A stretch of DNA of 64,000 bases from Myxococcota bacterium (GCA_965140415.1 OZ223209.1:4544001-4608000), one strand, 5' to 3'. Counted from the stretch's first letter, positions 6,992 through 57,812 are shown. A program made the numbers and translations. Notes: generated by a model not told the origin, from the sequence alone.

Positions 6992-9901
6992 ATGTTCAAG
7001 CAGCCCCGTTTTCAGCACACTGTAGGCTTTTCCCGTCCGCGCCTCGTTCTTGCCAGGCTTATGGCAATAGTCCTTCTGGCTTTGACGGCCTTGGCCGCAA
7101 GCGGTTGCAGCGACGACTTCGTCATGGTCTGTATGCCCGGCTTGTATCGTTGCGGCGGCGAAGAAGGACACTTGCTGCAACGTTGCGACAGCACGGCGGC
7201 GCGCTGGGAAACGTTGTTAGACTGCCAGGACATGGGCGAGAGATATACCTGCGATCAGGGTTCCTGTGTAAACCCCGATGCCGATGGCGATCAGGATAGC
7301 GAGCAGAGTGAAGAAGAACTGGGCGCTTGTATGGACGATCTGGACTGCCAGGAAACCGCCGCCTGCATCGATGACCTCTGCGTTGAAAACGCCGAAGTTC
7401 GCTACGACCTCGATGTGCGAGGCGCGACTCTGGTTTATCGCAACGACAGCGGGCGCATCGACCTGTACGACACCGATGGCGCATGGCTGCTGAAAGGCGG
7501 CTATGCCGAAACATTATTGGACGAGTTGGACGAAGGCCATTCGCTTGCCACTTCGACCGTTTCCGCCGCCCGACGCAGTGTTAGCACCGGAACGGGACAG
7601 GATCAACTGGGACGTTACGAAGAATTGGAAATCACCCTCGCGGCAGAAGCAAACGAACCGGAAATGCGCTGGGTCATTCGAGGGTATAACGAGCTTGGAT
7701 TTTACACGTTCCGCATTCGCCTGATCAACGACAGCACGGAAACCATACAGATCGCCAAGCTGGCCGTATTGAAGACCGAAGGCTCTGAAAATGGCGGTCT
7801 GTGGCTGGGAAATTCTCCCGCGACGCATCGCATCTGGGAAAACGGCTCCCACACCCTGGCAGATCATGTCGTGGAGATCCGCCCCGGCGACACCCAACCG
7901 GATGTTTTCCTAAGCAGCGCGGCACCGGGCGATTACCAAGGCTACTCCGCTTCCAACTGGAATCACCTGCTCTACGATCTGGACAGCCAGAAAAGCTGGG
8001 TGGCCGGTGCCTTGACCACCGAAACCAGTTCGCCGATCATCAACCTGAGCTACGAAGCAGGCGACTCGCTCACCTCACCCGACGGGCGCTCCTCATTCAG
8101 CTATTTCTCCATGGAAGCCGCCATGCTGCCGCATCCCAAACCGGTTACAGCCGGTGAGCGGTTTTCTTCCGAGCGCTATTACGTGCATCCTTCCAAATCG
8201 AATCCGCTATCGGCTTTGGAAAATTACGCACTGACCACCAAGCAGCAAATGGGCATCGTGCTATGGACCGAACGCAAAAAAGGCAACCGTGTTCCCAACG
8301 GCTGGAACAGTTGGAGCGGATCGAGCCTCACCGGCGGCTACGGCACGGATATTACCGAAGAGATCATCCTGGCCAATCTGGACGTCATGGCCAGCGAATT
8401 CAAGGACTGGGGCATAGACTGGTTCCAGGTGGACGACGGCTACCAGTCCGCCTACGGCGATTGGTGGTGGCGCGAAGATCGTTTCCCGCACGGACCGAAA
8501 TGGCTTTCGGATCAGATTCGTGCGCGCGGTTTCAAGCCCGGCTTGTGGATGGCTCCCTTCACTTTCAAGGAAAACAGCGAAACTGCCGAAGCACACCCGA
8601 ACTGGATTGCGGACAAATCTCCCGCCGGAGCCTTGTTGGCCACCCAATACGATCTGATGGATCTGACAAACCCCGAGGCGCGCGACCACATCCGGGAACT
8701 GTTCCGAACCTTCACCGAAGACTGGGGCTTTGACTGGCTGAAAATGGACTTTTCCTACTGGGCGCTTTTAGGAGACAATTTCTACGATCCCAGCCAGACC
8801 CGCGAAGAAGCGTATCGTTCGGCGGCAGGAATCATCCGCGAGCAACTGGGCGATGACCGTTTCTTCCTGGCCGTCTCGGCCATGGGCGCGCATTACGGAA
8901 TCGCCGATGCGGATCGCATCACGATGGACAATGCACCGGTTTGGGATTTCGAACCCGGAATGGACGCTGAAGATCGATTCAACCAACAGGGAATGAAACC
9001 GACCATGCGCACCGTGGCGCGGCGATACTATCTGCACAATCGCTTGTGGATCAACCACCCGGATCTGATCATCTTCCGGTCCAATACGAAAGACGACACC
9101 TGGCCGCGCATCAGCTTCCAGGAAACACAGGCTTTCTGTAGTTTCGTGGGCTTATCCGGCGGCATCGTGAAAATGGGCGACAAACTGGTGGACATGGGTG
9201 TCCAGGAAATCAACGCCGTACGCAAACTGTTGCCCATTTACGGCAAGGGCGCGCGTCCATTGGATATTCTGGAACGCGAATACCCGCAAGTATGGCACCT
9301 GCCGATCTCTTCGACACTCGACGGCTACGGCGAAACCTACGACGTTATCGGTCTGTTTAACTGGGGCATGAACTGGGATATGACACAGAACCCCTACGTC
9401 TATCAACCCGACGAGTTGCAGCCCGTCACGTACAACGAAGATCTGCGCCGCTTCAACCTGGATGCAAGCAGCAGCTATCTGGCGTATGAATTCTGGACCG
9501 AAACCTTCCTGGGCGAGTTGACCGAAGGGACGTTGCAACTGGAAGTGCCCTCCCATGCTGCACGCGTCGTGGCGTTGCGCAAGAAAACCGGTGTGCCGCA
9601 GTTTTTGGGCTGGAACCGACAGATCACCATGGGCGCAACCGATTTGAAATCGGTATCATTCGACACGTTTGAAAACAGCCTGACTGTCAGTACAAAGGTC
9701 GCCAAGGATACACCGCGCGCGCCCTTTACCTATCGGATGTCGTTTTACGTGCCAGAAGGATACGCGTTCGACAGCGCTTCCTATTCGGGGGACGCCGTAA
9801 GCTATCACGAAGAGAAAACGGAACGTGGCGGACGCCTGCTGAAAATCGCCTTTATTCCCACCAAAACCGGCAACGTAACGGTGACTCTGGCGTTTAAGTA
9901 A
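6992..9901 (+). CDS. Lipoprotein alpha-galactosidase-like glycoside hydrolase (GH36, clan D) with an N-terminal Cys-rich module
   Basis: Lipobox AASGC; GWNSW, FQVDDGYQ, PGLWMAPF, GFDWLKMDF (nucleophile), RITMDN (acid/base); GAGGA RBS. Confidence 0.82.
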   Translation: MFKQPRFQHTVGFSRPRLVLARLMAIVLLALTALAASGCSDDFVMVCMPGLYRCGGEEGHLLQRCDSTAARWETLLDCQDMGERYTCDQGSCVNPDADGDQDSEQSEEELGACMDDLDCQETAACIDDLCVENAEVRYDLDVRGATLVYRNDSGRIDLYDTDGAWLLKGGYAETLLDELDEGHSLATSTVSAARRSVSTGTGQDQLGRYEELEITLAAEANEPEMRWVIRGYNELGFYTFRIRLINDSTETIQIAKLAVLKTEGSENGGLWLGNSPATHRIWENGSHTLADHVVEIRPGDTQPDVFLSSAAPGDYQGYSASNWNHLLYDLDSQKSWVAGALTTETSSPIINLSYEAGDSLTSPDGRSSFSYFSMEAAMLPHPKPVTAGERFSSERYYVHPSKSNPLSALENYALTTKQQMGIVLWTERKKGNRVPNGWNSWSGSSLTGGYGTDITEEIILANLDVMASEFKDWGIDWFQVDDGYQSAYGDWWWREDRFPHGPKWLSDQIRARGFKPGLWMAPFTFKENSETAEAHPNWIADKSPAGALLATQYDLMDLTNPEARDHIRELFRTFTEDWGFDWLKMDFSYWALLGDNFYDPSQTREEAYRSAAGIIREQLGDDRFFLAVSAMGAHYGIADADRITMDNAPVWDFEPGMDAEDRFNQQGMKPTMRTVARRYYLHNRLWINHPDLIIFRSNTKDDTWPRISFQETQAFCSFVGLSGGIVKMGDKLVDMGVQEINAVRKLLPIYGKGARPLDILEREYPQVWHLPISSTLDGYGETYDVIGLFNWGMNWDMTQNPYVYQPDELQPVTYNEDLRRFNLDASSSYLAYEFWTETFLGELTEGTLQLEVPSHAARVVALRKKTGVPQFLGWNRQITMGATDLKSVSFDTFENSLTVSTKVAKDTPRAPFTYRMSFYVPEGYAFDSASYSGDAVSYHEEKTERGGRLLKIAFIPTKTGNVTVTLAFK

Positions 9902-9923
9902 GGCATAAACAAAAGGTTCAACC

Positions 9924-14597: not shown

Positions 14598-17500
14598 CTA
14601 CTTACCCCAACTGTAATCGCAGCCATCGAACGTGTCGCCGGAGTTACATCCCGGAGCCGCACAGGCATTCAAACCAGCGCAATCAATGTCTTCCGCCGTG
14701 CAACCACAGTCGCAATCATCATCTCCGTACCAGCTATCGTTGCAACTCCAATCGACCGGAACACTGGATTCAACATCCGTGTCGCCATCGACCACATCGC
14801 CATCCACATCACCATCGACCGAGCAGTCGGCAGTGTCATCAAAGTGATCGTCTGGGTAGACAATGGCGCAGAAGTCGTCGCAGTAATCATCACCCTGCCA
14901 CATGCAAGGATCCGCCGCCGCGCAGGAACAGTTGTCGTAGTAGGTGCCACACACATAGGAATCGCAGGTATCATAATTGCAGGCGCAACCTTCAATGGCA
15001 TCTACACAAACACCGGAATCATAACCAGCACCGATGCAACCTGCGTTGCAGTCGCCGTAACCGTAACAGTCCGCCACGTCGCCATCGACCACATCGCCAT
15101 CGACCACGTCGCCGTCTACGACATCACCGTCCACCACGTCACCGTCGACCACGTCGCCGTCCACCACATCACCGTCTACCACCGCATCACCGGTCGTGAT
15201 CGTCAGGGTGTAATCGTAAAGATCACCGGGAGCGAAAGTAGTCAGCACCAGCACCAACTGCTGGCAATCGCCAATGGCGAGATCATCAAAGCCAGAGCAC
15301 AAGCCATTGAAGTCATCGCTGTAGGCATAGCAACCCGAGGGGCTACTGGGATCGAAGGTCTGATTGTAAACCGCCATCACGCTGTCGCCATCACCGCAGG
15401 TGATGTCGATATCCAGGGTTTGCGCCTGACCGGTCATGTTGACGATTTTGTACACATCGTAATGTACGCCAACGCCAGCACCAGAAGCCATCGCACAGCC
15501 TTCGCCATAGTAACGGTCATAGGTCGGATCGGAAACGTCCACAGCCCCTGTTTCGACCAGCGATTCGCCTAGCGGCATAATCTCATTCGCATCCTGATCC
15601 GGATCGCAAACCACGTCACCATCGACCACATCGCCATCGACCATATCACCATCAATCACATCACCATCCACATCGCCGTCGACCGAGCAGTCGGCGGTGT
15701 CGTCGAAGTGATCGTCCGGGTAGACAATGGCGCAGTAGTCGTCGCAGTAATCATCACCCTGCCACATGCAAGGATCCGCCGCCGCGCAGGAGCAGTTGTC
15801 GTAGTACATGCCACACACATAGGCATCGCAGCTATCATAATTGCAGGCGCAACCTTCAATCGCATCCACGCACATACCGGAATCGTAACCAGCACCAACA
15901 CAAAGCGAATCACAGTCGCCGTAGCCGTAACAGTCTGCCACGTCACCGTCTACCACATCGCCATCAACCACATCACCGTCGATCACGTCACCGTCCACCG
16001 AGCAATCGATGCTGTCATCGAAGTAATCATCCGGGTACGCAATCGCACAGTAATCATCACAGTAACCATCTTCCTGCCATGCACAGGGGTCCGCCGCCGC
16101 GCAGGAGCAGTTATCGTAGTAGGTACCGCACACATAGGCATCACAGCTATCGTAGCTGCATACACAACCCTGGGTCGCGTCCGAGCACACACCCGAATCA
16201 TAACCCGCATCGATGCAACCCGCGCTGCAATCGCCGTACCCGTAGCAATCAACCATGTCGCCGTCGACCACATCGCCGTCGACCACATCACCATCGATCA
16301 TGTCACCGTCAACCGAACAATCGATGCTGTCATCGAAAGAATCATCCGGGTACACAATCGCACAGTAATCATCGCAGTAACCATCTTCCTGCCATGCACA
16401 GGGATCCGCCGCCGCGCAGGAGCAGTTATCATAGTAGGTACCGCACACATAGGAATCACAGCTATCGTAATTGCAGGCACAACCTTGAATGGCATCTACA
16501 CACATACCGGAATCGTAACCGGCGCCAACACAAAGCGAATCACAGTCGCCGTAACCGTAGCAGTCTGCCATGTCGCCATCGACCATGTCACCATCAACCA
16601 TGTCACCATCAACCATGTCACCGTCGATCATGTCACCGTCGATCATGTCACCGTCGACCATGTCACCGTCGATCATGTCACCGTCGACCATGTCACCGTC
16701 GACCATGTCACCGTCGACCATGTCACCGTCGATCACGTCACCGTCGACTACATCACCGTCAGTACCACCACAATCACCGCAACCGAAGGATTCAACTTCG
16801 CCAACGCAAGTTGCATCCCAAATCGTGTCGCAGCACCAGCTGTCATAGAAACACACGCAATCGTTGATGGCCGTATCGCTACAACCACCGGTTTCATGCG
16901 GAGTACAGCAATCGCCGAGAACCACGTCACCATCAACCACGTCACCGTCGACCATGTCGCCGTCAACCATGTCGCCATCGACCATGTCGCCATCGACGCC
17001 ATCACCATCAACCACTACACAGCTGACATTCATGACGCCCGGAGTTCCGTAGTGCGGGCCATCGGCCACATACTCGGAAGCACCATGACACCAATAGGCA
17101 GCATTGTCGTTGTATGTCGGATCGTAGTAATCCACATCCAGTTGCCAGGAGTAACCGGCATCCTGCGACCATTCCGTAGCATCCACGGAATTGATCAACG
17201 TGCCCGTGGTACCATCAACGTACAGGCGTAGCGCATCACCGCTGTTGTTCAGCGAAAACGCGAAATCATACGCCACGTTGGTCAGCCCACCGTTTTCAGC
17301 AGGATTATCCGAACCCGCAAACAGCAGGGTTTCATTGGCACCGATTGTCAGATCTTCCGGAAGAACTTCGCAGTTCGTATCGGCAGAATCGCACAGGGTC
17401 AAGCCACCCAGGCTCAGGATCTCATCGGTCATGTTGTAAATTTCAAGCCATTCACCAAGCTGCTCGGGAACGGTTCCGGTCGTATTGGCCAAAAATTCCG

Positions 17501-18419
17501 TGAAGATGATATCTCCAACATCAGGCAACGGATAGCTCATGTCACCATCAACCATGTCGCCGTCGACCATGTCACCATCAACCATGTCGCCATCAACCAT
17601 GTCGCCATCGACCATGTCGCCGTCAATCATGTCGCCGTCAATCATGTCGCCGTCAATCATGTCGCCGTCAATCACGTCGCCGTCAATCATGTCGCCATCA
17701 ATCATGTCGCCGTCAATCACGTCGCCGTCAACCACGTCGCCGTCAACCACGTCGCCGTCAACCACGTCGCCGTCAATCACGTCGCCGTCAATCACGTCGC
17801 CGTCAATCACGTCACCGTCAACCACGTCGCCGTCAACCACGTCGCCGTCAATCACGTCGCCGTCAATCACGTCGCCGTCAACCATGTCGCCGTCAACATC
17901 GCCGTCGGTATCACCATCGACTACATCACCGTCAACTTTGTCGCCGTCAACCACGTCACCATCGACCTTGTCACCATCGACTTGATCGCCGTCGACCTGG
18001 TCACCATCAACCTGATCGCCGTCGACCAGATCGCCATCAATCGAAGTGTCGGCATCGCCATCCGTGTCGCCCGGATTTGTCCAGGTGCACTGGAAGCCAT
18101 CCTGACCACCTTCATCGATGCAGTCGAAGAAGCCATCACATTCTTCGATTTCAGCACATCCCAGATATTTGGTGGGGAAGTCGGCAGGCGGATTCTCACA
18201 GGTCGCGGTGCAAAGCGCCGTCAATTCCGCATTTTCATACCCTAAACTTGCAGCGCATTCCGTAGCCAGTTCGCATGCCGCTTCACAATAAGGCAAGCAA
18301 TACTCAAGCTGTCCTTCGAAATCGCCATCGGTTGCGGTTTCGTCATCGCCGCCACATCCACCGGCTCCCATCGCCATGATGCTGACCAGCAATAGAAGTA
18401 ACCATCTTAGATCTTTCAT
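14598..18419 (-). CDS. Giant acidic Cys-rich surface lipoprotein (1273 aa): DGD arrays, lamin-tail domain, four 14-Cys modules, PPC-like beta-sandwich
   Basis: GAGGAG RBS; MKDLRWLLLLLVSIMAMGAGGC lipobox; LTD motifs IIFTEFLAN..EWLEIYN..LNNSGD..GTPG at approx. 17025-17530. Confidence 0.85.
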   Translation of the reverse strand: MKDLRWLLLLLVSIMAMGAGGCGGDDETATDGDFEGQLEYCLPYCEAACELATECAASLGYENAELTALCTATCENPPADFPTKYLGCAEIEECDGFFDCIDEGGQDGFQCTWTNPGDTDGDADTSIDGDLVDGDQVDGDQVDGDQVDGDKVDGDVVDGDKVDGDVVDGDTDGDVDGDMVDGDVIDGDVIDGDVVDGDVVDGDVIDGDVIDGDVIDGDVVDGDVVDGDVVDGDVIDGDMIDGDMIDGDVIDGDMIDGDMIDGDMIDGDMVDGDMVDGDMVDGDMVDGDMVDGDMSYPLPDVGDIIFTEFLANTTGTVPEQLGEWLEIYNMTDEILSLGGLTLCDSADTNCEVLPEDLTIGANETLLFAGSDNPAENGGLTNVAYDFAFSLNNSGDALRLYVDGTTGTLINSVDATEWSQDAGYSWQLDVDYYDPTYNDNAAYWCHGASEYVADGPHYGTPGVMNVSCVVVDGDGVDGDMVDGDMVDGDMVDGDVVDGDVVLGDCCTPHETGGCSDTAINDCVCFYDSWCCDTIWDATCVGEVESFGCGDCGGTDGDVVDGDVIDGDMVDGDMVDGDMVDGDMIDGDMVDGDMIDGDMIDGDMVDGDMVDGDMVDGDMADCYGYGDCDSLCVGAGYDSGMCVDAIQGCACNYDSCDSYVCGTYYDNCSCAAADPCAWQEDGYCDDYCAIVYPDDSFDDSIDCSVDGDMIDGDVVDGDVVDGDMVDCYGYGDCSAGCIDAGYDSGVCSDATQGCVCSYDSCDAYVCGTYYDNCSCAAADPCAWQEDGYCDDYCAIAYPDDYFDDSIDCSVDGDVIDGDVVDGDVVDGDVADCYGYGDCDSLCVGAGYDSGMCVDAIEGCACNYDSCDAYVCGMYYDNCSCAAADPCMWQGDDYCDDYCAIVYPDDHFDDTADCSVDGDVDGDVIDGDMVDGDVVDGDVVCDPDQDANEIMPLGESLVETGAVDVSDPTYDRYYGEGCAMASGAGVGVHYDVYKIVNMTGQAQTLDIDITCGDGDSVMAVYNQTFDPSSPSGCYAYSDDFNGLCSGFDDLAIGDCQQLVLVLTTFAPGDLYDYTLTITTGDAVVDGDVVDGDVVDGDVVDGDVVDGDVVDGDVVDGDVADCYGYGDCNAGCIGAGYDSGVCVDAIEGCACNYDTCDSYVCGTYYDNCSCAAADPCMWQGDDYCDDFCAIVYPDDHFDDTADCSVDGDVDGDVVDGDTDVESSVPVDWSCNDSWYGDDDCDCGCTAEDIDCAGLNACAAPGCNSGDTFDGCDYSWGK
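14823..16562 (-). repeat. Four 246-nt copies of a 14-Cys module (16317-16562, 16002-16247, 15687-15932, 14823-15068)
   Basis: CYGYGDC...DC repeated; the first three copies have a 315-nt period. Confidence 0.92.
17539..18062 (-). repeat. 15-nt coding tandem repeat, about 35 x (V/M)(V/I)DGD; smaller arrays near 16570-16762, 16921-17012 and 15075-15190
   Basis: Unit like ACCATGTCGCCGTCA on the + strand, read directly. Confidence 0.95.
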
Positions 18420-18667
18420 CTGTACTCTCCTCATTGGCTGAATTAACAGGCTAACCTTTAAGCCGACTAAAAAACGAAACAATATCTTAGTTTCTGGTCA
18501 TAAAATAACATCACGTTGAATAGCCCAATCACAAAACAAACGCACACCACACCCGCGATCAACAACAAACCGTCGTTCCCGCGCCGGCGCTGTGGACGTT
18601 CGCCCCACTTCCGTAAATGCTCGGTCTACCTATTCAACGATGCAATACTACCCAATCAATGGAAATT

Positions 18668-44075: not shown

Positions 44076-44460
44076 TTACGGAGGTTATAGCGAGCGACAA
44101 CCTCTTTTCGAAATCACTCCAAATTTCCGCTATCCGGGTCTTCGATTGAAACCGAATCGATGTCCCGGAAGTTTCGATTATAGATAGCCATTTGATTGCA
44201 GCGGAAGTCCATGACTTACCCACCGGTGGAGGCTGCGAGTAATTCCGAAAATACGGCAAGTTTTAATCGTTAGATGAATCCTTAAACGATTGTCACTCAC
44301 GACTTATCACAAACCATGATCCCGGTTGACACATCGTTCTAGAATCAGTAGAATCTCCCCATCGTACGGGACTTACAAAAGTTTACGAAACAAAAGACCA
44401 TCGCGTGTGCAATCGAGGATTGTAAGGATGGGCTTGGTATATCCAGGAAGTGAGCATCAC

Positions 44461-46449
44461 ATGAAAAAAAGTACAGCAGTCGGAATCATTTTGTGGATGG
44501 CGGTGTTGTTAGGGCTTCTGGCAGGTTGTTCCGATTCGATCCTGCAAGATCGCAATGACGACCCGGATGGCGATACACAACAAAACGAGCCGGACGGTGA
44601 CGACGGCAACCAGAATCCGATTACACCCCATCTGCCGATTATCGATGGCGATTCTACCGACGGTGACTCCTCGACAGATGGCGACAACTCCCCCGACGGA
44701 GACAATTCTATAGACGGTGACAATTCCACCGATGGTGACACGCCAATAGATGGCGACACTCCGGTGGACGGCGATCACAATCCCGACGGCGATAACCTGC
44801 CGGACGGCGATGTTTTCCCCGATGGCGATACGCCGGTAGACGGGGACACTCCCGTGGATGGCGATTACCCGAGCCTCACCTGCGATTTCGATTCGACCGC
44901 GCGCTTTCCTATTGCAAACGTTCAGCCGCAGCAGGTTGCATTCGGCGGCATCCCGCTCGGACAACTAAGCAGCCGGTGGGTGACGATCTGCAACATGGGT
45001 GGCGCAACACTGCAACTTAATTCAGCAGAGCTTAGCCGGGAAACGAGCCGGGAATACTATCTCGACCAAGTTTCCATCGTCGCCTTTCCCGTCCAACTTG
45101 CACCAGGAGAAGGAATAATCCTCCAGATTTTCTACGCCCCGGCGGATGCAGGAACGGATAACGGCGAATTGATCATCACGACCAACGATCCGGACCGAAC
45201 CGAAATCCAGATACCGCTCAGCGGCGAGGCGACCTTCGAAACCTCAGTGGTCATCGATCCTCGCACCTTGATTTTCAATGAAAACAATGTCGGCAGCACC
45301 AAAACGTTCTCCATTCAAAACCAGGGCGATATTTCCGTCACGGTAGAAGACATCAGCCTGCTTTCCCTTGGTTTGACGATCTTTTCCATCGACCATATCG
45401 AACTGGCCGCAGCTCCAGCCGCCGATGAAGGCCCCTGGACCTTGCCAAAGAATACCACCATGATCGTCTACATTCGCCTTCATGAAGCCATGCCCGGCTT
45501 TACCGATCAGGCCCAGGTTTCCTGGAGCGATGGGGATATGCTGCACACCGAGCAGGTTCTGTTGACCTTCCCCTCTGATGAAGACACCTGTGCGGTCGCA
45601 AACATCCAGCCTGCCGTATCGGAAGCGGTTGTGGAAGATCTGGTTCCCCTGGATGCCAGCAGTTCCTACGATCCCAATGGGACCATCATGCAATATCGCT
45701 GGAGCTTCGATAGGATTCCCTCAGCCGGAGGCGAAGCAGTTATATTCAATCAGTCGCACAACGACATCACCGATATTTGGAGCGCAGAGGCGAAACCGAA
45801 GGTGCTGGTGCCCGTCTCCGGAACCTATGTCGTGCGCTTGTCTGTAAGAGATTCTGAATCGGATTGTACCGGCGTGCATGAAGCGACGGCGACTATCGAA
45901 GTCGAAGAAAACGTCCTGGCCGCAGATATCCATCTGGAACTGACTTGGAACATTCCCAATAACGATCACGATCTGCACCTGATCCAGCCGGGCGGCTTCC
46001 ATTCACGCAACTGCTCCGACGGCAACCAGACCGATTGCCACTGGTGCAACTGCGCCACGCAGGGTGGCACGGCGACGCCTTGTCCCCCTCGCGGCTGCCC
46101 CGGCCCGGCAGAAGCTCCCGACTGGGGAGAGATCGGCAATCGCGACGACGATCCACGCCTGGACCTCGACGACATCCAGGGAATGGGACCGGAATACATC
46201 AACTACAATTTACCGGCTTCAGGCGATTATACCGTCACGGTGGAAAACTATTCGGGATCGACCAACGTAACCAGCACGGTCCGCGTGTACCTGCGCGGCG
46301 AATTGGCCGAAACCTTCACCTATGGACCACCCGACGACACGAATGGATTCCCATCCAACAGCCACTGGAATGTATGTACTTTGCGTGTGGCAGCACCGGA
46401 TGACGTTACGATCATTCCGTTGGGAACGGTGGAAGACTCCACTTACTGA
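44461..46449 (+). CDS. Surface lipoprotein: DGD hexapeptide array, Ig-like (ASH/choice-of-anchor D-like) domains, PKD domain, YfaP/DUF2135-like C-terminus
   Basis: Lipobox LAGC; ITTNDPD; LDASSSYDPNG..YRW; LELTW..DHDLHL..LDLDD..GPEYI. Confidence 0.75.
   Translation: MKKSTAVGIILWMAVLLGLLAGCSDSILQDRNDDPDGDTQQNEPDGDDGNQNPITPHLPIIDGDSTDGDSSTDGDNSPDGDNSIDGDNSTDGDTPIDGDTPVDGDHNPDGDNLPDGDVFPDGDTPVDGDTPVDGDYPSLTCDFDSTARFPIANVQPQQVAFGGIPLGQLSSRWVTICNMGGATLQLNSAELSRETSREYYLDQVSIVAFPVQLAPGEGIILQIFYAPADAGTDNGELIITTNDPDRTEIQIPLSGEATFETSVVIDPRTLIFNENNVGSTKTFSIQNQGDISVTVEDISLLSLGLTIFSIDHIELAAAPAADEGPWTLPKNTTMIVYIRLHEAMPGFTDQAQVSWSDGDMLHTEQVLLTFPSDEDTCAVANIQPAVSEAVVEDLVPLDASSSYDPNGTIMQYRWSFDRIPSAGGEAVIFNQSHNDITDIWSAEAKPKVLVPVSGTYVVRLSVRDSESDCTGVHEATATIEVEENVLAADIHLELTWNIPNNDHDLHLIQPGGFHSRNCSDGNQTDCHWCNCATQGGTATPCPPRGCPGPAEAPDWGEIGNRDDDPRLDLDDIQGMGPEYINYNLPASGDYTVTVENYSGSTNVTSTVRVYLRGELAETFTYGPPDDTNGFPSNSHWNVCTLRVAAPDDVTIIPLGTVEDSTY
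44644..44865 (+). repeat. Mostly 18-nt coding repeat, 13 x DGDxxx
   Basis: DGDNSP, DGDNSI, DGDTPV etc., read directly. Confidence 0.9.
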
Positions 46450-46629
46450 CACCGAGTAAAATTCATGTGACTTATCAGTTACGGTTCGCGTTCTTCTAAT
46501 TTAATATCAGTTGTTCGGTTTTGTATTGACAAGCCGGTGCAAGTGAACTATGGAAGTAATGTTTGTAAAGCGCATGCTTTACAAACGTTGACGTGTATTC
46601 ATTACTGTACAATCAGCAAAGGGGTGAAC

Positions 46630-47322
46630 ATGAAACGAACGAGAATGCTTTCATTTGGAATCAGCTTGTGCGCGGTCGTATTGCTACTGGCGGCCTGTGG
46701 CGCTCCCTACACCTTGGTCGAGTCCAGCATGCACAGCCTTTCTCCGCAGCGCAGCCAGATCGCCGTGGCCGTCTGGCAGGACGGCGACTACGATTCCGAT
46801 CCCAGCGAATTGCAGGCCTACCTGACTGTCGCGCTGGTAAACAAAGGCTTCAAAGCGCGCGCCTTCAACCTGGAAATGCTGTTCGGGCGTTCCTATCTCA
46901 AACGCCTGATGACCGGCGATCTGTATGCGCCCACCGACGGCATGGTCGCCGGAATGAAAAAGGGCGGCATGATCGAAGGCGATGCGGCGGCCCTGGAAGA
47001 TTTCATTCCGCGCACCGAAAAACTGGATGAAGTGGCGCGTTACAAGACCATGGAAAAACTGGCCAAAGATCTGCCGGGCGACTGGGACTACAACTACCTG
47101 ATGGTCGTGCATCAGTTCGACACTTGGAGCTTCGCTTCTTACGTGATCGACATCGAATCCAAAGACGTCGTGAACATGGTCGTGCTCTCCGGTAGCCGCG
47201 ACGGCTTCATCAATGCGCTGAATCAACCCAAGATCGGCAAGGTCGGTTCCGACGCTCAGGATGGCGACGTCAGCCGCCTGCACTGGCTGCGTCTTGCGGG
47301 ATACCTTGTGGACCGCCTGTAA
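46630..47322 (+). CDS. Lipoprotein of unknown function (possibly CsgG/LpoB-like alpha/beta fold)
   Basis: Lipobox LAAC; no acidic patch after the Cys. Confidence 0.65.
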   Translation: MKRTRMLSFGISLCAVVLLLAACGAPYTLVESSMHSLSPQRSQIAVAVWQDGDYDSDPSELQAYLTVALVNKGFKARAFNLEMLFGRSYLKRLMTGDLYAPTDGMVAGMKKGGMIEGDAAALEDFIPRTEKLDEVARYKTMEKLAKDLPGDWDYNYLMVVHQFDTWSFASYVIDIESKDVVNMVVLSGSRDGFINALNQPKIGKVGSDAQDGDVSRLHWLRLAGYLVDRL

Positions 47323-47848: not shown

Positions 47849-48095
47849 GCCAGCCTTACATCTCTTTAAACGATCTGGACATGTAGATACATTTTAGCAA
47901 TGTCAGGTGAAATTAACCGACCTGCCCGATTTTGTATTTTCCGCCTCCCATCATCTCACAATATCGCTTGACATGGACAGGATGAAGCCATAATAATTCG
48001 CAAGGTCAGAATTGAAATGCCATCGTTTGACAAGCCTGGCAGTAACGGATCCATCTTAAAAAAACTATAGTTGTTTAGAAGTGTTAGCGCAGTCC

Positions 48096-50174: not shown

Positions 50175-50202
50175 TAAACAAAACCAACAAAAAGCATTTC
50201 TA

Positions 50203-51141: not shown

Positions 51142-52455
51142 CTATTCCGATATTTCCATATCTCCGTCTATTTCAACATCACCATCCTCATTATCTGGTG
51201 GTGTAAAAGTGCCCCTAACGCAAGTCGCCCAGAATTTATCTGCTGTCGTTTTATAATATGAACCTATGTATGGGTCTGCAGACCCAGAATGGCTTGCTAA
51301 GACAGTCATAATCCAGGCACTATCAGTGTAATCTGAACGTTCTGTAGAAGACCACAGGTAATAGTACTTACTTCCTACATCTCCCATTTCATCTGGAAAA
51401 TATGCCCCATATTGATTAGGTTCATCGTATATACCACAACCAGCTTGGCAATAGCTGAATAGTTCATTTTCAGAATCTTCCAGAAAACAGTCCCTTGAAG
51501 TGCAATCGTCATACACCCTACAGGTTCCGCCATATTCAAGGAACTTACAATCCCTTACCAGCGAGCGCAACTCTGAGATCGACGGCAGCCGCCAGTCGTC
51601 GCCGAATAGGTCCAAATTAGCGCAGTAGTCCACGGCATCATACCAATCCATTTTTTGGGTTGGGATGTTAGTCAGCCAATCGAGGCCTGTGGTTTCGTCC
51701 GTGTAAATGTAATCAGAGATATCCAAGTCGGCGTCAGAATCGCCATCCTCATTATTTGGTGGTGTAAAAGTACCCCGAACGCAAGTTGCCCAAGATTTAG
51801 TACTCGTTTTATTCTCTAAGCCTATGTATTGGCCTGTAGATACAGAAGAGCTTGCAAAAACAGTTATAATCCAGGCTCCATTTGAGTTATGTGAACGTTC
51901 TGTAGAAGACCACAGGTAATAGTACTTACTTCCTACATCTCCCATTTCATCTGGAAAATATGCCCCATATTGATTAGGTTCATCGTCCATTCCACATCCT
52001 ATCGAGCAATAGCTGAATAGATCGTCTTCAGATTCCTCAAAATAGCAGTCATCTGAAATACAATCGTCATACACTCTACATGTTCCGCCATATTCAAGGA
52101 ACTTACAATCCCTTACCAGCGAGCGCAACTCCGAAATCGACGGCAGCCGCCAGTCGTCGCCGAATAATTCCAGGTTAGCGCAGTAGTCCACGGCATCATA
52201 CCAATCCATTTTTTGGGTTGGGATGTCAGTCAGCCAGTCAAGGCCTGTGGTTTCGTCCGTGTAAATGTAATCAGAGATATCCAAGTCGGCGTCAGAATCG
52301 CCTTGTTGGTTTTCTATCGAATCTTCATCGGCGTCGTAATCGCCTTGTTGGTTTTCTACTGTATCTTCATCGCCGCCATTACTACGATCGTTACAGGCAA
52401 TCAAGGCGATCATGAACAGAAACAGTATGATGAACTTTAACGTGTATGTTTTCAT
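51142..52455 (-). CDS. Lipoprotein with two tandem DUF1566 (Lcl C-terminal, C-type-lectin-like fold) domains
   Basis: Lipobox LIAC; DETTGLDW, WYDAVDYC, DWRLPSISEL, WSST, CVR each present twice. Confidence 0.85.
   Translation of the reverse strand: MKTYTLKFIILFLFMIALIACNDRSNGGDEDTVENQQGDYDADEDSIENQQGDSDADLDISDYIYTDETTGLDWLTDIPTQKMDWYDAVDYCANLELFGDDWRLPSISELRSLVRDCKFLEYGGTCRVYDDCISDDCYFEESEDDLFSYCSIGCGMDDEPNQYGAYFPDEMGDVGSKYYYLWSSTERSHNSNGAWIITVFASSSVSTGQYIGLENKTSTKSWATCVRGTFTPPNNEDGDSDADLDISDYIYTDETTGLDWLTNIPTQKMDWYDAVDYCANLDLFGDDWRLPSISELRSLVRDCKFLEYGGTCRVYDDCTSRDCFLEDSENELFSYCQAGCGIYDEPNQYGAYFPDEMGDVGSKYYYLWSSTERSDYTDSAWIMTVLASHSGSADPYIGSYYKTTADKFWATCVRGTFTPPDNEDGDVEIDGDMEISE
51184..52302 (-). 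repeat. Internal tandem duplication (558 and 561 nt)
   Basis: 51745-52302 versus 51184-51744; an additional 42-nt duplication lies near 52288-52371. Confidence 0.92.
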
Positions 52456-52633: not shown

Positions 52634-53473
52634 TTACCTCGCCCCTCCGAAGTTGCGCTGGCGGGCGACTTCGAAGAGCAACACGGTGGTGGCCATGGCG
52701 ACGTTGAGCGAGTCGGCCACTCCCGCCATCGGAATGCGCACCTGCAAGTCCGCCTGCTTCATCCATTTTTCGGACAGGCCGTATTGCTCCGCTCCCATGG
52801 CAACGGCGCAGGGGACTCTCAGATCGACTTCGGTATGATGCTCCGTGGCGTGCGGTGTGGCGGCCAGGATGCGGATTCCCTTTTCCCTTAGCCAGGCGAA
52901 GGCCTCTTCGCTCGTGGCTTCGGCCACCGGCACGGTGAACAGGGTGCCGGTGCTGGCGCGCACGACATTGGGATTGTTGATGTCCGTGGCTCCGTCGCAC
53001 ACGATGACGCCGTCCGCTCCCACCGCATCGGCGCAGCGCAGAATCGTTCCCAGATTTCCCGGCTTTTCAATCGATTCGGCCACGATCAACAGCGGAGTGG
53101 CAGACAGCGGCAACTCGTTTAAAGTAACGCCGATTTTGGGCGCGGTGGCGATCAGGCCGTCGGGCCGGTCGCGATAGCTGATTTTCTTGAACGCGGCTTT
53201 GGAAAGCGAAAAGATCTGCGCCCCGGCATTTTTAGCCGCCTGCAATAAGGCGGGTTCATTCTCCCCCAGAAAGAGTTCGTCGCAGTAATACACGGCTTGT
53301 GGTTGAACACCCGCCTGCACGGCGCGACTCAGTTCGCGATAGCCTTCGATCAACAGCAGTCCGGCACGTTTGCGATGCGTACTATCCCGCAGCCGCACCA
53401 GATCCTTGATGCGTGTATTCTGAACGCTCGTCAATTCCGTCGCATGAAGCGTTTTTATCAAATCCTGATTCAT
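52634..53473 (-). CDS. TrmH/SpoU-family RNA methyltransferase
   Basis: EKPGNLG, GAEQYGL, IPMAGVADSLNVA. Confidence 0.92.
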   Translation of the reverse strand: MNQDLIKTLHATELTSVQNTRIKDLVRLRDSTHRKRAGLLLIEGYRELSRAVQAGVQPQAVYYCDELFLGENEPALLQAAKNAGAQIFSLSKAAFKKISYRDRPDGLIATAPKIGVTLNELPLSATPLLIVAESIEKPGNLGTILRCADAVGADGVIVCDGATDINNPNVVRASTGTLFTVPVAEATSEEAFAWLREKGIRILAATPHATEHHTEVDLRVPCAVAMGAEQYGLSEKWMKQADLQVRIPMAGVADSLNVAMATTVLLFEVARQRNFGGAR

Positions 53474-55044
53474 CGTGACTCACTTTTATCCTTGCAGCAG
53501 CGGAAACCTTTTGCCGATGGGTTCCAGATCGCATCGTAATCGCAGCGATGCAGCGTTTCCGAGTCGCCGCAGTTGTATGCACCACCTCTGAAATGCTCGT
53601 GGCCGTCTTCGGTGTAGACCACTTCCCACACGTTGCCATTGATGTCGAACAGGCCCCACTCGTTGGTGCAATCGGGGAAGGTGCCGGTGGGCATGACGGT
53701 AAACGCCGCTCCGCAGACCTGGCGGCAATGTGGATAGGGGCAGGGGTCTACATTCTCACAGGCGCTCATGGGACCGCAGTTACAGAAGGTGTCGATGCCG
53801 TTACAGAGCGTGGCGCTGAAATCATCGCCGTAACAATACACAGTGTAGTCCGGTCCCTGGCAGGCGTCCACCCATTCGGTGGGTAGACACAGGCGCTTAC
53901 CGGCGTTACTACAGGCCGTGTTGGCGGTCGTCAAGGAAACGGGATACCAGGGTTTGACTCCGGCTACGCTCACCGCCCGGCTGGTGTCCAGGCCGATATT
54001 CGTGGGTGTGGCGTCGGGTCGGCTGGCTTCGTAGCGATCGATGCAGAAGCGCTCGTCCACCAGCACCATGTCGTTTGGGCAGGGCCCGGGAGGATCTTCG
54101 CATAAACACCAGTTCTGGCCGGTTTCTTCGTCGAAGCCGCAGCCTAAAGGCGCGGTGTCCGAACATTGATCATTGCAATTCACCGAAACCCAGATCAATG
54201 CGCCGGGGGCGCACATGCAGGCGGTTTGTTCATCGATGCAAAAACTGCTTCCTGCCGTGCTGCAACTGCCGGAACAAACAAGAGGTGCATCCTGTTCGGT
54301 TTGATCCGGCTCCAGCTCCGGATCGGGATCTGGATCGGGGTCAGGGTCAGGGTCAGAATCGGGTTCCACCTCGTTGCGATCTACGATATCCGCATCCAGA
54401 TCGCCGTCGGGTTGACTGTCGAGATCGGCGGGTGGAAGATCGGGATCGGGATCGGCATCGCCGTCGATGAAATCCATGTCCGTATCGCCCGGTGGGAGGT
54501 CGCTGTCGGTTTCCAGATCATCATCTTGCTCGATCTCAACATCGATTTCCGCATCCGCTTCCATGTCGCCATCGACGGGGAGATCGCCGCACAAACAGGC
54601 GTCCTGATTCAGATTCGGATCGAAATCGCAGCTTAAAAACGGAGCCGCGCCGCAGATTCCCAGGGTTTCACAGTTGAATTTGCGCCAGCCGCCCGCTACA
54701 CACATGCAGATATTCTGCGTGTCGATACAAAAGGTTCCTTCCGTACAGGCTCCTTTGCATTCGATTCCGCTATCGATTTCGCTACCTTCCTTGTCGCCAT
54801 CCGGGTCGATGCAGCCGCTTTCATCGGCGTCGTCATCTCCATCGGAAGCGAGATCCGTATCGGCGGGAACACCATCCTGATCGCCAGGAATATAAATTTC
54901 ATAGTCAGCAGGAGGAGATAGGTCGCTGTCGGCCTGGGAATCGTCTTCGCTTTCAAAACAGGCGAAGCCGGATAGCGATATCACCAGCGCCAGTATCCAG
55001 ATCCATCCAATATACGGAATTTTTCCTGTGATCCTGCTTTCCAT
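53470..55044 (-). CDS. Lipoprotein with Cys-rich modules, a DGD/PD-rich tether and a C-terminal FGE-sulfatase (SUMF1-like) domain
   Basis: Lipobox GFAC; FCIDRYE, GKRLC..EW, DINGNVWE, RGG, GFRCC. Confidence 0.82.
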   Translation of the reverse strand: MESRITGKIPYIGWIWILALVISLSGFACFESEDDSQADSDLSPPADYEIYIPGDQDGVPADTDLASDGDDDADESGCIDPDGDKEGSEIDSGIECKGACTEGTFCIDTQNICMCVAGGWRKFNCETLGICGAAPFLSCDFDPNLNQDACLCGDLPVDGDMEADAEIDVEIEQDDDLETDSDLPPGDTDMDFIDGDADPDPDLPPADLDSQPDGDLDADIVDRNEVEPDSDPDPDPDPDPDPELEPDQTEQDAPLVCSGSCSTAGSSFCIDEQTACMCAPGALIWVSVNCNDQCSDTAPLGCGFDEETGQNWCLCEDPPGPCPNDMVLVDERFCIDRYEASRPDATPTNIGLDTSRAVSVAGVKPWYPVSLTTANTACSNAGKRLCLPTEWVDACQGPDYTVYCYGDDFSATLCNGIDTFCNCGPMSACENVDPCPYPHCRQVCGAAFTVMPTGTFPDCTNEWGLFDINGNVWEVVYTEDGHEHFRGGAYNCGDSETLHRCDYDAIWNPSAKGFRCCKDKSESR

Positions 55045-55403
55045 GATTTTCCTCCGCGATCATCCAACAAATTCAGAAACTTACCAACTGACCTGCGCGA
55101 GCTTTGCTGTTTGTGCAACTCATGGATGACTCCCCCCTTTGTAACGAGTGGGTTGGGCCACGTCAAGCCTATTGTCCGATAATGAACGTTTCGTCGATAT
55201 CACCCGAATGTATTGGAATCTGCTGGACTTCGGCTATTAATGATGTTAGGAAAATGTTTGGTTGGTCGTGTGTCAAACGACAGAAAACACCAGCAATGCC
55301 ATTCAATGAATCGCTCGAAATACCGGGGAAAGAACTGTAGTAAACCCATGATGGGGATTGTCCGCCCTGGTTCATGTTACCCATACGCAGTGGAGGTCAG
55401 ATT

Positions 55404-57812
55404 ATGATCCGAACGAAGTGCCTGACTTTTCTCGTACTGCTGGCCATGGTCGCGCTTGTTTGCGGCTGTAACAGCAGCGATCCGGTGTTTGAAGACACCG
55501 TCTCCCCCGTGAGCGTGGATCTCACCTACTTGAAAGACGCAGAGGGGCGCTACATCCACCTGCGCGGCACCAATGTCGGCGGCAGCACGAAAGCGCCGTT
55601 GGCGGAAACGGAAGCCAACGTCAAGGAATTGACCGAAGACGATGGCCGCAGTTTCAGCTATGGCGGCGTCAACGATGTCTGGGTGCAACCCGATGGCACC
55701 GTGCTTAACGGCGCGGGTCGTCCCTTCGCATTAGACGAAGCGGACAAATGGTTCAGCCAGCTGCGCGAACTCGGTTTCAACTCCATTCGCCTGCTCTGGA
55801 TCTGGGAAAGCGTGTATCCGGTTGCCAAGGGAGAGCCGGATCTGGATTTCCTGAATTATTTCGAGGAGATCATCGCCAAAGCGGAACAGCACGGCATATA
55901 CGTGCTGATCAATGCCCACGAGAACATCTGGAGCCGCCACTTGTGGTCGGACTACAACGAAAACGCACCGGGTGTGAAAGGGGAACTGGACAACATGCTC
56001 TGGTCGCTGTTCCCCAATGACGAGGGAAAATACACCGACAAAGTGGTTGGCGACGGTGCGCCCATGTGGGCGACGCGCGTTTGTCTGCCGCACAAAAACT
56101 GGCCGAAAGACGATCCCATGGGCTATCCGCCCAACTGGGGAACGCACCGGTTATTGGGGCGCTTCAACGATGCGATCGGCGGTTACGCCTTAACCGAACT
56201 GGGCAAGGCGCTGATCGATATGGGTATCGACGCCACCGAAATGATTGCGGAAATGAAGCAACAAGCTCCGAAAACGCCGTTCGAGATCACCGATACCTGC
56301 GACATGCTGCCCTGGACGTTCTGGGGCGCGAACGTGGCAGTGAGTCTGGATGCGGAGCAGTGCTACGCCAGCTTCTTCGCCGGGGATAAAGTCTACCCGG
56401 ACGTGCGCGTGACCGAAGATGGCGAAGTGATGCACAAAGACGAAGTCCCGGACGGTGTCAAGGCGCAGACCTTGAGCGAGTATCTACAGGAATCCTACCG
56501 CGACGCCTGGGTGGAAATCGCCAAGCGCGCCAGCAAATACCCGAACGTCATCGGCTACGACATCATGAACGAACCCACCAGCGTATTCATTCTGCTCACT
56601 GCCGCCGCCGCCTATTTCGAGGCCGGTCTTGACAGCGCGGTGGAAAGCATTCTGAATCAACTGCTACCGGCGGAAGAAGGCGAAGACCCGGCGGATGGTC
56701 TGGGCGCGCAGATCTGGTTATTGATCAAAGCCCTGGAAGTGCTACCGCCCGCCACGACCGACGACATCAAGCAAAAGTGGGGGTTCGCCCATGCGAACCT
56801 TATGGAAATCTTCAACCTGAATACAGCTTTCGACAAGAACGAGTTGCAGCCGCTGTTCGAGTACGTCGGCGCAGGCATTCTGGAAGTGGACCCGGACGCC
56901 ATCATCTGGCTGGAACCGGCCTTCAGCGCATCCAATCTGCTGGGTGGCGAAGGTGGCGGTGTGGGCGGTCAGTGGCAGAGCTACATGACCAGCCCCAACG
57001 GCCTGGGCCAGACGATCTACTCGCCGCACTGGTACCCGGACATCTATCCCACGCTGGGATTCAACATGCCCTCGCGCGAATTCCGCATCGACGAGTACAA
57101 TCACCGCGATTACAGCGAGATGCTGATGCAGAAGGCGGGCTTCTCCTCCTTCGCATTGAACAACGCCCCGGTGGTTTTCGGTGAATTCGGCACCTACTGG
57201 AATTACCGCTACCTGGGTGAAGATCCGGAAACGCCGGGTTACGAGCAGAGCCGGAAGTACAACTATGAAATCTCGGCGCAGATCATGGATAATTACTACG
57301 AAGCGTTCGAGAAGCACTTCATGAGCAACATGAACTGGTGCTACACCACCGACAACGACCCGGTCTATGGGGACCGCTGGAATCACGAGGATTTCTCGAT
57401 CATCGATGAAAACGGCGAACCGCGCGGACACATGGCCTATTCGCGGCCTTACGCCAAAGCGCTTTCCGGCAAGCCGATTTCCACGCATTTCTATTCCGAC
57501 TACCACTACTACGACCCGGACAAAGGCACGCCCGATCCTTTCCACGAGTTCGAGGTGGTCTTCATGAGCAAGGAAACCGACGCTCCGACCATCATTTACG
57601 TGCCCGAGCATCAGTACCCGGATGGGTTTTACGTGTGGCTCTCCGACGGCTGGGCCGCCTGGGACGCGGAGCACCGCGATCTGTACGTCCACCTTACCGC
57701 CGACGATCCCGACTGGGAGCACAAGGTGGTCATCCGGCCTCCGATCGAAGGACAGGAGGTTGAAGGCTTCGATTACTACATCGAAGGCGAGTACGTCATT
57801 ACCGGCAAGTAA
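55404..57812 (+). CDS. Lipoprotein GH5 glycoside hydrolase, endoglycoceramidase/glucosylceramidase-like
   Basis: Lipobox VCGC; DAEGR..LRGTN, GFNSIRLLWIWE, GYDIMNEP (acid/base), FGEFG (nucleophile), RPY..SGKP C-domain. Confidence 0.82.
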   Translation: MIRTKCLTFLVLLAMVALVCGCNSSDPVFEDTVSPVSVDLTYLKDAEGRYIHLRGTNVGGSTKAPLAETEANVKELTEDDGRSFSYGGVNDVWVQPDGTVLNGAGRPFALDEADKWFSQLRELGFNSIRLLWIWESVYPVAKGEPDLDFLNYFEEIIAKAEQHGIYVLINAHENIWSRHLWSDYNENAPGVKGELDNMLWSLFPNDEGKYTDKVVGDGAPMWATRVCLPHKNWPKDDPMGYPPNWGTHRLLGRFNDAIGGYALTELGKALIDMGIDATEMIAEMKQQAPKTPFEITDTCDMLPWTFWGANVAVSLDAEQCYASFFAGDKVYPDVRVTEDGEVMHKDEVPDGVKAQTLSEYLQESYRDAWVEIAKRASKYPNVIGYDIMNEPTSVFILLTAAAAYFEAGLDSAVESILNQLLPAEEGEDPADGLGAQIWLLIKALEVLPPATTDDIKQKWGFAHANLMEIFNLNTAFDKNELQPLFEYVGAGILEVDPDAIIWLEPAFSASNLLGGEGGGVGGQWQSYMTSPNGLGQTIYSPHWYPDIYPTLGFNMPSREFRIDEYNHRDYSEMLMQKAGFSSFALNNAPVVFGEFGTYWNYRYLGEDPETPGYEQSRKYNYEISAQIMDNYYEAFEKHFMSNMNWCYTTDNDPVYGDRWNHEDFSIIDENGEPRGHMAYSRPYAKALSGKPISTHFYSDYHYYDPDKGTPDPFHEFEVVFMSKETDAPTIIYVPEHQYPDGFYVWLSDGWAAWDAEHRDLYVHLTADDPDWEHKVVIRPPIEGQEVEGFDYYIEGEYVITGK

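Follow-up and report, generated by a model that had tools for sequence, protein, structure and literature searches.

Acidic, DGD-rich N-termini of predicted lipoproteins in a Myxococcota genome: a probable lineage-specific tether with a plausible sorting mark

Taken together, our analysis points to a polyanionic tether, specific to one lineage and carried by outward-acting lipoproteins, as the probable explanation of an acidic, DGD-rich signature that follows the lipobox in predicted lipoproteins of a Myxococcota bacterium; the acidic patch within it is a plausible mark for sorting to the surface or into vesicles. The signature was noticed in a 64,000-nucleotide stretch, the window, which corresponds to positions 4544001-4608000 of a genome of 5.98 Mb in one contig, with a G+C content of 52% (GCA_965140415.1 OZ223209.1). 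There, the initial annotation had read a shared acidic/DGD signature behind the lipobox of 11 unrelated lipoproteins as a candidate export and tether system for surface lipoproteins. Acidity after the lipobox is indeed common to all 11, whereas DGD soon after the lipobox is a property of only 6 of them. Counting across the genome confirmed that the DGD/acidic signature is genome-wide, lipoprotein-specific and far larger than the window.

For this count, 3909 open reading frames (ORFs), which together span 85% of the genome, were called by a codon-usage score and were divided into lipoproteins (signal peptidase II type), signal peptidase I (SPI) proteins and cytoplasm-like proteins by our own regular expressions and hydrophobicity rules. 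In a first pass, DGD was present at +2..+31 (counted from the lipobox Cys) in 273 of 574 lipoproteins, 21 of 290 SPI proteins and 10 of 1608 cytoplasm-like proteins. The lipobox rule of this pass did not accept Pro at -2 or -3; on inspection, 17 of the 21 SPI proteins with DGD were lipoproteins that it had overlooked, with the Cys in place (for example, LPAC followed by G, or PIAC followed by S). Under a broadened rule that admits Pro, DGD near the N-terminus was found in 316 of 653 lipoproteins (+2..+31) and in 4 of 220 clean SPI proteins, with the cytoplasm-like count unchanged (10/1608); SPI proteins with a Cys near the site took an intermediate place (6/51). The density of DGD at +2..+31 of lipoproteins is 3.26 per 100 residues, compared with an expectation of 0.34 given how much D and G these segments contain, and predicted lipoproteins hold 3395 of the 4430 DGD tripeptides of all called ORFs but only 23% of the residues. 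Evident false positives (an adh_short and an NrfD protein) made up 2 of 39 sampled lipoproteins. Apart from this, two features of the ORF set deserve mention: about 650 of the 3909 called ORFs (16.7%) are lipoprotein-like by our rule, an unusually high share that depends on that rule, and one called ORF has a length of 9713 residues.

The most telling comparison is that with lipoproteins that act in the periplasm. Such controls were picked by family profile searches, ignoring the tether, with the profiles OmpA_C, BamD/YfiO, LptE, HlyD_D23, LolA, Peptidase_M23 and RlpA/DPBB_1. Of the proteins retrieved, 17 are predicted lipoproteins and served as the controls. DGD at +2..+31 was absent from all 17 and present in 316 of the 636 other lipoproteins (Fisher p = 1.4e-5), and the acidic patch was seen in a single control (CGIPEEDY). 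An equal frequency of DGD in periplasmic lipoproteins and cytoplasmic proteins, the outcome that the initial annotation had set against its own proposal, is thus ruled out, because the motif is absent from the 17 controls and rare in cytoplasm-like proteins. Of further envelope components, the TolC-like proteins were SPI proteins in 8 of 8 cases and not lipoproteins, and a profile search for BamE gave no family match in the genome. Two LolA-family proteins are encoded at 431333-431836 and 1983562-1984083 of the genome, one with an SPI signal and one as a lipoprotein; the latter may stand in for LolB.

The cargo of the two kinds of lipoproteins differs as well. Random samples were drawn from lipoproteins with 120-650 mature residues and compared with Pfam (E <= 1e-4). 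In the DGD-positive sample (40 of 194 eligible proteins), 26 of 40 had a match: arylsulfotransferases (three), chlorophyllase/PETase-like hydrolases (three), Lcl_C (five), 5'-nucleotidase, carboxylesterase, FGE-sulfatase, purple acid and other metallophosphatases, BNR, PhoPQ-related, GDPD, GH32, VWA and endonuclease I, plus a few weak or low-complexity matches. Envelope-housekeeping families were matched by Pfam in 0 of these 40. Among the proteins with neither DGD nor patch (39 of 172 eligible), 22 of 39 had a match, and 13 of the 22 belonged to periplasmic or envelope families, namely, BamB-like PQQ_2, OmpA (two), efflux adaptor (MFP), RlpA, M23, TPR (three), Peripla_BP_2, cytochrome c, M16 and LamB. 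The remaining matches were the two false positives mentioned above, DUF192, and cargo-like GH5, LRR, arylsulfotransferase, Lcl_C, Cys-rich and VWA proteins. Since this second sample is defined by the very feature in question, it only illustrates the difference, and the family-defined controls are the test. Furthermore, the mature parts differ beyond the N-terminus: the median net acidic excess per residue beyond +120 is 0.10-0.11 in the DGD and patch-only classes, compared with 0.04 in the class with neither, 0.025 in SPI proteins and 0.02 in cytoplasm-like proteins, and the Cys content is 2-3 times higher in the tethered classes.

Closest to the Cys lies an acidic patch of the form C-[S/G]-x-D-D, with the acidic residues at about +3..+7. 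In the profile of all lipoproteins, position +2 is Ser or Gly in 49%, Asp makes up 21-26% at each of +3..+6, and Lys plus Arg are near 5%. With at least two D/E required at +3..+7, 325 of 653 lipoproteins qualify, among them 217 of the 316 DGD-bearing ones, compared with 43 of 220 clean SPI proteins at the corresponding positions; two consecutive D/E beginning at +3, +4 or +5 are present in 198 of 653 lipoproteins. Could such an acidic start simply retain these enzymes, periplasmic and anchored in the inner membrane, by avoidance of the Lol pathway, as Asp at +2 does in E. coli? Many of the cargo enzymes have periplasmic counterparts in E. coli. According to passages of PMC3222651, Asp near the Cys does retain E. 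coli lipoproteins. However, position +2 of the DGD-positive proteins is Ser or Gly, not Asp, in 63%, and the four efflux-adaptor lipoproteins among the controls, the class expected at the inner membrane, lack the patch without exception (0/4). In addition, 1000- to 4000-residue proteins with PKD, LTD, Cys-rich and choice-of-anchor modules fit the periplasm poorly. We consider inner-membrane retention very improbable.

Behind the patch follows the DGD stalk. The first DGD starts at +9..+12 in 169 of 332 cases, and in DGD-positive lipoproteins low complexity extends over a median of 64 residues behind the Cys (interquartile range 41-111, maximum 478), compared with 20 residues in lipoproteins with neither DGD nor patch. 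From one DGD to the next, the spacing in lipoproteins is 5 residues 1037 times, 6 residues 668 times, 7 residues 150 times and 4 residues 90 times. At least three units in an array were found in 72 of 574 lipoproteins, in 5 of 290 SPI proteins of the first pass and in 1 of 1608 cytoplasm-like proteins, the last being a missed lipoprotein. By their start, 40 of 127 arrays lie within +40, 25 at +41..+100 and 62 beyond; DGD tracts also link domains in large proteins, such as the 1278-residue lipoprotein of the window. The initial annotation had described DGD as recurring at domain boundaries, expanding into 5- and 6-residue arrays and, as one possibility, serving as a spacer, and all of this is borne out by the spacings, the low-complexity stalks and the 62 internal arrays.

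What structure such arrays adopt was addressed by an AlphaFold2 (AF2) run with a single sequence (residues 100-440 of the 1278-residue protein), which gave a mean predicted local distance difference test (pLDDT) score of 41.6 and, for the array, a pLDDT of about 35-45 without secondary structure. A sequence search of the PDB with the array returned nothing significant (best E 0.32, the SET7/9 N-terminal domain), and no repeat family of Pfam or NCBIfam fell on the arrays, at E <= 0.01 for array-rich proteins and at E <= 1e-4 for the 40 sampled ones. These predictions and searches fit an extended, disordered polyanion. A different structure, a rigid rod of calcium-binding repeats in the manner of thrombospondin type 3 (TSP3) repeats or the RTX beta-roll, is suggested by the high Asp density, the regular 5- or 6-residue period, the beta-branched or hydrophobic spacers of many arrays (VV, VI, MV) and the conservation of DGD at the protein level; DGDxDGD, which is the 4-residue spacing, even fits the DxDxDG motif. 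We regard a calcium rod as unlikely all the same, given that neither TSP3, RTX nor another calcium-repeat family was matched in Pfam and NCBIfam, that no solved structure was found and that the AF2 model of the array is devoid of secondary structure. Moreover, the two residues between DGD units (mainly T, V, I or M at the first and V, T, P, I or A at the second position) differ widely from protein to protein (TP, TT, VV, QT), and the second of them is often Pro (218/1037).

Are the tracts selected at all, or are they functionless slippage expansions in fast-evolving accessory genes? Tandem Repeats Finder (TRF) detected 15-bp arrays with 76-92% matches, repeat number and sequence vary among orthologs, and housekeeping lipoproteins, being old and conserved, may not tolerate insertions; all of this could be expected of neutral expansion. 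Across 1031 array units, however, Asp codon use equals the background and the DNA identity of adjacent units is 75.7%; where adjacent units encode the same peptide, their DNA is identical in only 70 of 305 pairs, and third positions of the DGD core agree with a frequency of 0.549, compared with 0.468 for independent draws. Synonymous sites are thus nearly randomised while D-G-D is held, and selection on the peptide, rather than recent slippage alone, is indicated by this. The codon pattern argues for a DGD motif that is maintained at the protein level in arrays that would be old at their synonymous sites. Outside lipoproteins, the arrays are nearly absent, as the SPI and cytoplasm-like counts given above attest, and the first unit has a preferred position. 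Neutral slippage is, accordingly, an account to which we give hardly any credence.

The lineage that uses DGD is narrow. In a single-gene FastTree phylogeny of RpoC, with an Acidobacteriota metagenome-assembled genome (MAG) as the root, named Bradymonadia and Myxococcota MAGs fall inside the same-phylum set of this genome (G000; its relatives are G001 and so on), and the phylum is therefore most probably Myxococcota. To count arrays, we searched 301 genomes of this phylum for a DNA pattern that encodes (DGDxx)2DGD; the pattern in reverse, used as a control, was essentially silent. G000 has 971 matches and five genomes of the same family have 546, 198, 101, 24 (G004) and 8; G008, of another family (f4) of the same order, has 57, three other genomes of the order have 1, 0 and 0, and each of the 291 other genomes of the phylum has 0-6. 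The lineage specificity that the initial annotation had proposed for DGD is borne out, and by these counts the DGD form appears to extend hardly beyond a single Myxococcota family and a sister family of the same order. With the same lipoprotein rule applied to 200-kb samples, the shares of lipoproteins with DGD at +2..+31 and with the acidic patch, respectively, are 12/21 and 11/21 in G000, 10/16 and 10/16 in G001, 2/10 and 3/10 in G004, 10/21 and 13/21 in G008, 1/24 and 10/24 in G006, 1/29 and 14/29 in G020, and 0/21 and 4/21 in G014. Hence, the patch is more widespread than DGD among the sampled relatives. In the G020 sample, the lipoprotein tethers are of a D-T and D-A type.

The same picture emerges from individual orthologs. 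The PHP hydrolase of the window has DGD tethers of different length in four same-family orthologs (eight DGD units in G001 compared with two in G000), and the first DGD falls at about +10 to +14. Elsewhere in the order, the G009 ortholog is acidic without DGD and that of G007 starts with a neutral CGSSSSPEPEF; more distant orthologs begin with a P/D/L-rich or K/D-rich leader or carry an SPI signal. The beta-propeller protein has a short acidic tether in all four orthologs (G001, G002, G004 and G008), with DGD in G001 only and GDAD, GGDDD or a D-run in the other three. The lipocalin of G009 reads ...GGTTLDADAD where that of G000 reads ...DDTTLDGD, and more distant lipocalins are untethered. Finally, GH5 shows a short acidic start and no stalk in all nine proteins of the order (G000 plus eight orthologs). 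From these orthologous sequences, it appears that proximal acidity is the conserved part and DGD a replaceable building block. As a side observation, the PHP hydrolase matches in G001:C2 and G002:C58 contain one in-frame TAA inside the matched range, which probably lies upstream of the true start, the long ORFs beginning after it.

These data bear on the strongest form of the original idea, in which a dedicated translocon for surface lipoproteins would recognise DGD itself as its sorting signal. In its favour, the first DGD is sharply positioned, both in the +9..+12 peak described above and across the PHP hydrolase orthologs, whose tethers are otherwise different; DGD tethers are, in addition, nearly exclusive to lipoproteins. 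Against this stands that orthologs of the same order swap DGD for DAD, GDAD or D-runs and keep the acidic patch, and that about half of the arrays are internal linkers, 62 of 127 starting more than 100 residues from the Cys. Because DGD is replaced where the patch is kept, and because many arrays are far from the Cys, it is unlikely that sorting is determined by DGD itself. G004, although of the same family, is poor in arrays (24 matches; 2 of 10 sampled lipoproteins with DGD). A candidate translocon was not found either: the search for SlipAM/DUF560 (PF04575) gave no match in G000, but it was likewise silent in all 14 control genomes and is thus uninformative. On these grounds, we think it quite improbable that a translocon reads DGD, and the export and tether system of the initial annotation did not materialise.

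Within the window, the signature is carried by scattered genes (Table 1). All 11 N-termini quoted in the initial annotation have a signal peptide with a positive n-region and a hydrophobic core, followed by the lipobox Cys, and at least two D/E are present at +3..+7 in 8 of the 11, the other three having one. The first DGD lies at +9 to +14 in six (14598, 20482, 23232, 29597, 39136 and 44458) and only at +40, +60 and +217 in three (53470, 6992 and 51142), and DGD is wholly absent from two (23897 and 55374). The cargo domains are unrelated, as had been noted: Melibiase/GH36-like, LTD, lipocalin, PHP, PKD/choice-of-anchor D, Lcl_C plus FGE, FGE and GH5. The beta-propeller-repeat protein and the two Cys-rich ones fall into no clear family. 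The lipoprotein at 46627, which the initial annotation had correctly set apart as lacking the signature, serves as an internal contrast. For the beta-propeller-repeat lipoprotein, a protein atlas look-up gave only weak PD40/TolB-like leads (score 0.87). In the 1278-residue protein, the seven shorter arrays alternate with modules of about 90 residues (315-bp period). The genes near the 12 lipoproteins include those for thiamine synthesis, asparagine synthase, MoxR/DUF58/transglutaminase, QueG, a SpoU methylase, UvrD and others; the 12 lipoprotein genes form neither an operon nor an island and lie on both strands among housekeeping genes.

Table 1. Lipoprotein genes of the window and their acidic or DGD tracts (window positions; first DGD relative to the lipobox Cys)
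Feature	Position	Strand	N-terminus, tether or array
GH36/melibiase-like lipoprotein	6992..9901	+	lipobox Cys = residue 39 (7106-7108); CSDD patch, then directly a Cys-rich segment; first DGD +60
1278-residue lipoprotein, LTD (lamin-tail) domain	14598..18434	-	proximal module CGGDDETATDGD at 18321-18356; 79 DGD in total; first DGD +10
Longest DGD array of the 1278-residue protein	17541..18038	-	residues 133-298; 34 units, mainly (V/M)(V/I)DGD
Four of seven shorter arrays, 1278-residue protein	16926-17009, 16572-16760, 16257-16310, 15942-15995	-	
Other three shorter arrays, 1278-residue protein	15615-15680, 15078-15176, 14781-14816	-	
Blc-type lipocalin lipoprotein	20482..21168	+	tether 20557-20694 (CSDNDDTTLDGD...); first DGD +10
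Cys-rich lipoprotein, family without assignment	23232..23900	+	tether 23295-23429 (CGEEDEPTADGDD...); first DGD +10
Cys-rich lipoprotein, family without assignment	23897..24583	+	acidic patch only, CNEEDPPEF, 23987-24040; no DGD
Beta-propeller-repeat lipoprotein	29597..30676	+	tether 29669-29755 (CGSSDEDADGDIDGD); first DGD +9
PHP/CehA-McbA-type metallohydrolase lipoprotein	39136..41793	-	tether 41650-41736 (CSSEDNPSSTDGDSVDGD); first DGD +11
PKD/choice-of-anchor-D lipoprotein	44458..46449	+	low-complexity leader 44527-44955; first DGD +14
13-unit DGD array of the PKD/choice-of-anchor-D lipoprotein	44644-44865	+	6-residue period
Lipoprotein without signature	46627..47322	+	CGAPYTLVESS
Lcl_C (DUF1566) + FGE-like lipoprotein	51142..52455	-	acidic leader CNDRSNGGDED..., 52216-52395; 42-bp repeat; no proximal DGD, first at +217
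FGE-sulfatase-like lipoprotein	53470..55044	-	acidic leader 54736-54960 (CFESEDDSQADSD...); first DGD +40
GH5 lipoprotein	55374..57812	+	short acidic start CNSSDPVFED, 55467-55499; no DGD, no long tether

Some other genes of the window are worth recording. A Peptidase_S66 LD-carboxypeptidase gene is followed by an 842-residue ORF, in which a beta-lactamase-fold domain is fused to a complete Mur-ligase module (3262-6805); the two look like a peptidoglycan-recycling pair with an unusual fusion. An SPI protein at 41934-44075 has six RCC1 repeats and a CarboxypepD_reg-like domain, and an RCC1-repeat protein is also listed among the vesicle-specific proteins of Myxococcus xanthus. A region of low G+C content (43.6% in 48-52 kb) harbours a 697-residue ORF without a Pfam match (48081-50993), beside which lies an IS4/IS5-family transposase in two overlapping ORFs (DUF4096 and DDE_Tnp_1), an arrangement that suggests a frameshifted or broken insertion sequence. 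The SPI protein at 57868-59532, also without a Pfam match, has a Pro/Ala/Glu-rich repeat (PAAEPA-like) at its mature N-terminus, with an 18-bp TRF array at 57982-58082; this non-lipoprotein linker is unlike the DGD type.

To explain the observations, we propose a two-part N-terminal module, patch plus stalk, of an outward-acting lipoprotein class in an uncultured Myxococcota family. The stalk would be a hydrated, extended and cation-attracting spacer that could hold enzymes tens of nanometres off the membrane. The patch may mark the class for a non-housekeeping fate, most likely surface exposure and/or loading into outer membrane (OM) vesicles, an analogy drawn from the Bacteroidota lipoprotein export signal (LES). 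A bolder version of this model, which we hold to be possible and on balance doubtful, is that an LES-type route evolved in Myxococcota independently of Bacteroidota: the patch at +3..+7 would be read by an envelope machine, the lipoproteins would be flipped to the surface and loaded into predatory or scavenging vesicles, and their enzymes would sit on cation-bridged DGD stalks tens of nanometres long.

Several points weigh against the tether-and-mark model. All protein classes depend on our own regular expressions and hydrophobicity rules. The patch is present in 108 of 337 lipoproteins without DGD and missing in 99 of 316 with it, which makes for a loose coupling of the two layers. Nor do families divide cleanly: GH5, arylsulfotransferase and Lcl_C were found once each in the sample with neither feature. 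5'-Nucleotidase, endonuclease I, GDPD and phosphatases are periplasmic enzymes in E. coli, and the cargo is therefore no proof of an outward location. E. coli Blc faces the periplasm, whereas the Blc-type lipocalin studied here is tethered. For the stalk, the single-sequence input of the AF2 run leaves room for a calcium-dependent fold. Finally, passages of PMC3222651 report that an Ala-to-Asp exchange at +7 (A27D) of M. xanthus FibA blocked its export to the matrix, with FibA kept in the OM; the same source links Lys at +2 to lipoproteins of the inner membrane and Ala at +7 to export into the matrix. Since A27D stopped the matrix export of FibA, the acidic patch is no general myxobacterial export tag.

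Two Blc-type paralogs, 70% identical, are encoded at 20482-21168 of the window and 2750913-2751506 of the genome, and both are DGD-tethered, while the lipocalins of the relatives G005 and G006 have no tether; with E. coli Blc facing the periplasm, this family is a useful test case for sorting. In a wider sense, how lipoproteins are routed to the surface outside Bacteroidota, spirochaetes and Neisseria is largely an open question, and this genome provides several hundred natural test cases in two classes, periplasmic housekeeping proteins on one side and acidic hydrolases and binding modules on the other, divided by a mark that resembles the Bacteroides export tag. If the patch is a sorting signal, it would represent convergent evolution of that tag, and the exposed enzymes of uncultured, probably predatory or scavenging Myxococcota could be predicted from sequence. 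If it has no sorting role, the module is still a clear example of a lineage-wide linker convention. In any case, the DGD stalk would be a compact, selected, polyanionic spacer design and a potential display linker.

Acidic stalks of other kinds are known. The R region of staphylococcal MSCRAMMs (ClfA, SdrC/D/E) is built from a Ser-Asp dipeptide, is glycosylated and is held by a C-terminal LPXTG wall anchor in Gram-positive bacteria; it shares with the DGD stalk its acidity, its periodicity and the placing of a functional domain away from the anchor, and its sequence is unrelated. Thrombospondin type 3 and DxDxDG repeats are likewise short, Asp-rich repeats with D-G. They differ in that no profile matched here and that the dominant 5- and 6-residue spacing gives no DxDxDG. 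Closer to the present case in their position, disordered N-terminal linkers are reported for about half of the OM lipoproteins of E. coli (RcsF, NlpD and Pal), with a role in Lol trafficking, by El Rayes et al. (bioRxiv 10.1101/2021.01.05.425367). Those linkers resemble the tracts described here in being of low complexity, without predicted structure, placed between anchor and folded domain and present in roughly half of the lipoproteins. However, they belong to housekeeping lipoproteins of the periplasm, and in this genome the proteins resembling Pal, NlpD and RlpA are without the DGD/acidic type; the tracts described here are, in addition, polyanionic, periodic and much longer.

The nearest relative of the patch is the LES. 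As described in passages of PMC5080379, the LES of Capnocytophaga canimorsus is K-(D/E)2 at about +3..+5, depends on its position and is sufficient to expose a periplasmic lipoprotein, and the consensus of Bacteroides fragilis is SDDDD at +2..+6, with periplasm-facing lipoproteins described there as lacking an LES. For B. thetaiotaomicron, passages of PMC6222051 report that the lipoproteins enriched in vesicles are acidic hydrolases that bear S(D/E)3, within a CS(D/E)2-3 pattern, and that surface exposure and vesicle loading of SusG require CS(D/E)2. A 2026 preprint (PMC13692018) ties lipoprotein export to an expanded Lpt machine with the Bacteroidota-specific LptZ. In M. xanthus, the vesicles are also rich in hydrolases, and putative lipoproteins account for 8 of 46 vesicle-specific and 38 of 188 enriched loci, according to passages of PMC4158809. 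The resemblance of the Cys-adjacent acidity to the Bacteroidota LES, pointed out in the initial annotation, thus holds with regard to S/G at +2, D at +3..+6, the acidic hydrolase cargo and the absence from periplasmic lipoproteins. On the other hand, the host is placed in Myxococcota by the single-gene RpoC tree, not in Bacteroidota, and a long DGD stalk comes after the patch, none being described for LES proteins. Because the host is not a member of Bacteroidota and a sorting function is putative, we call the patch at most LES-like and do not class it as an LES. In open-access papers and bioRxiv, we found neither a description of DGD repeats in lipoproteins nor anything relevant on surface-exposed acidic lipoprotein tethers of Myxococcota. 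In sum, lipoprotein tethers and LES-like patches are, as kinds, already known; what is new here is the DGD unit, its restriction at the level of a family, the evidence for selection and the clean contrast to the periplasmic controls.

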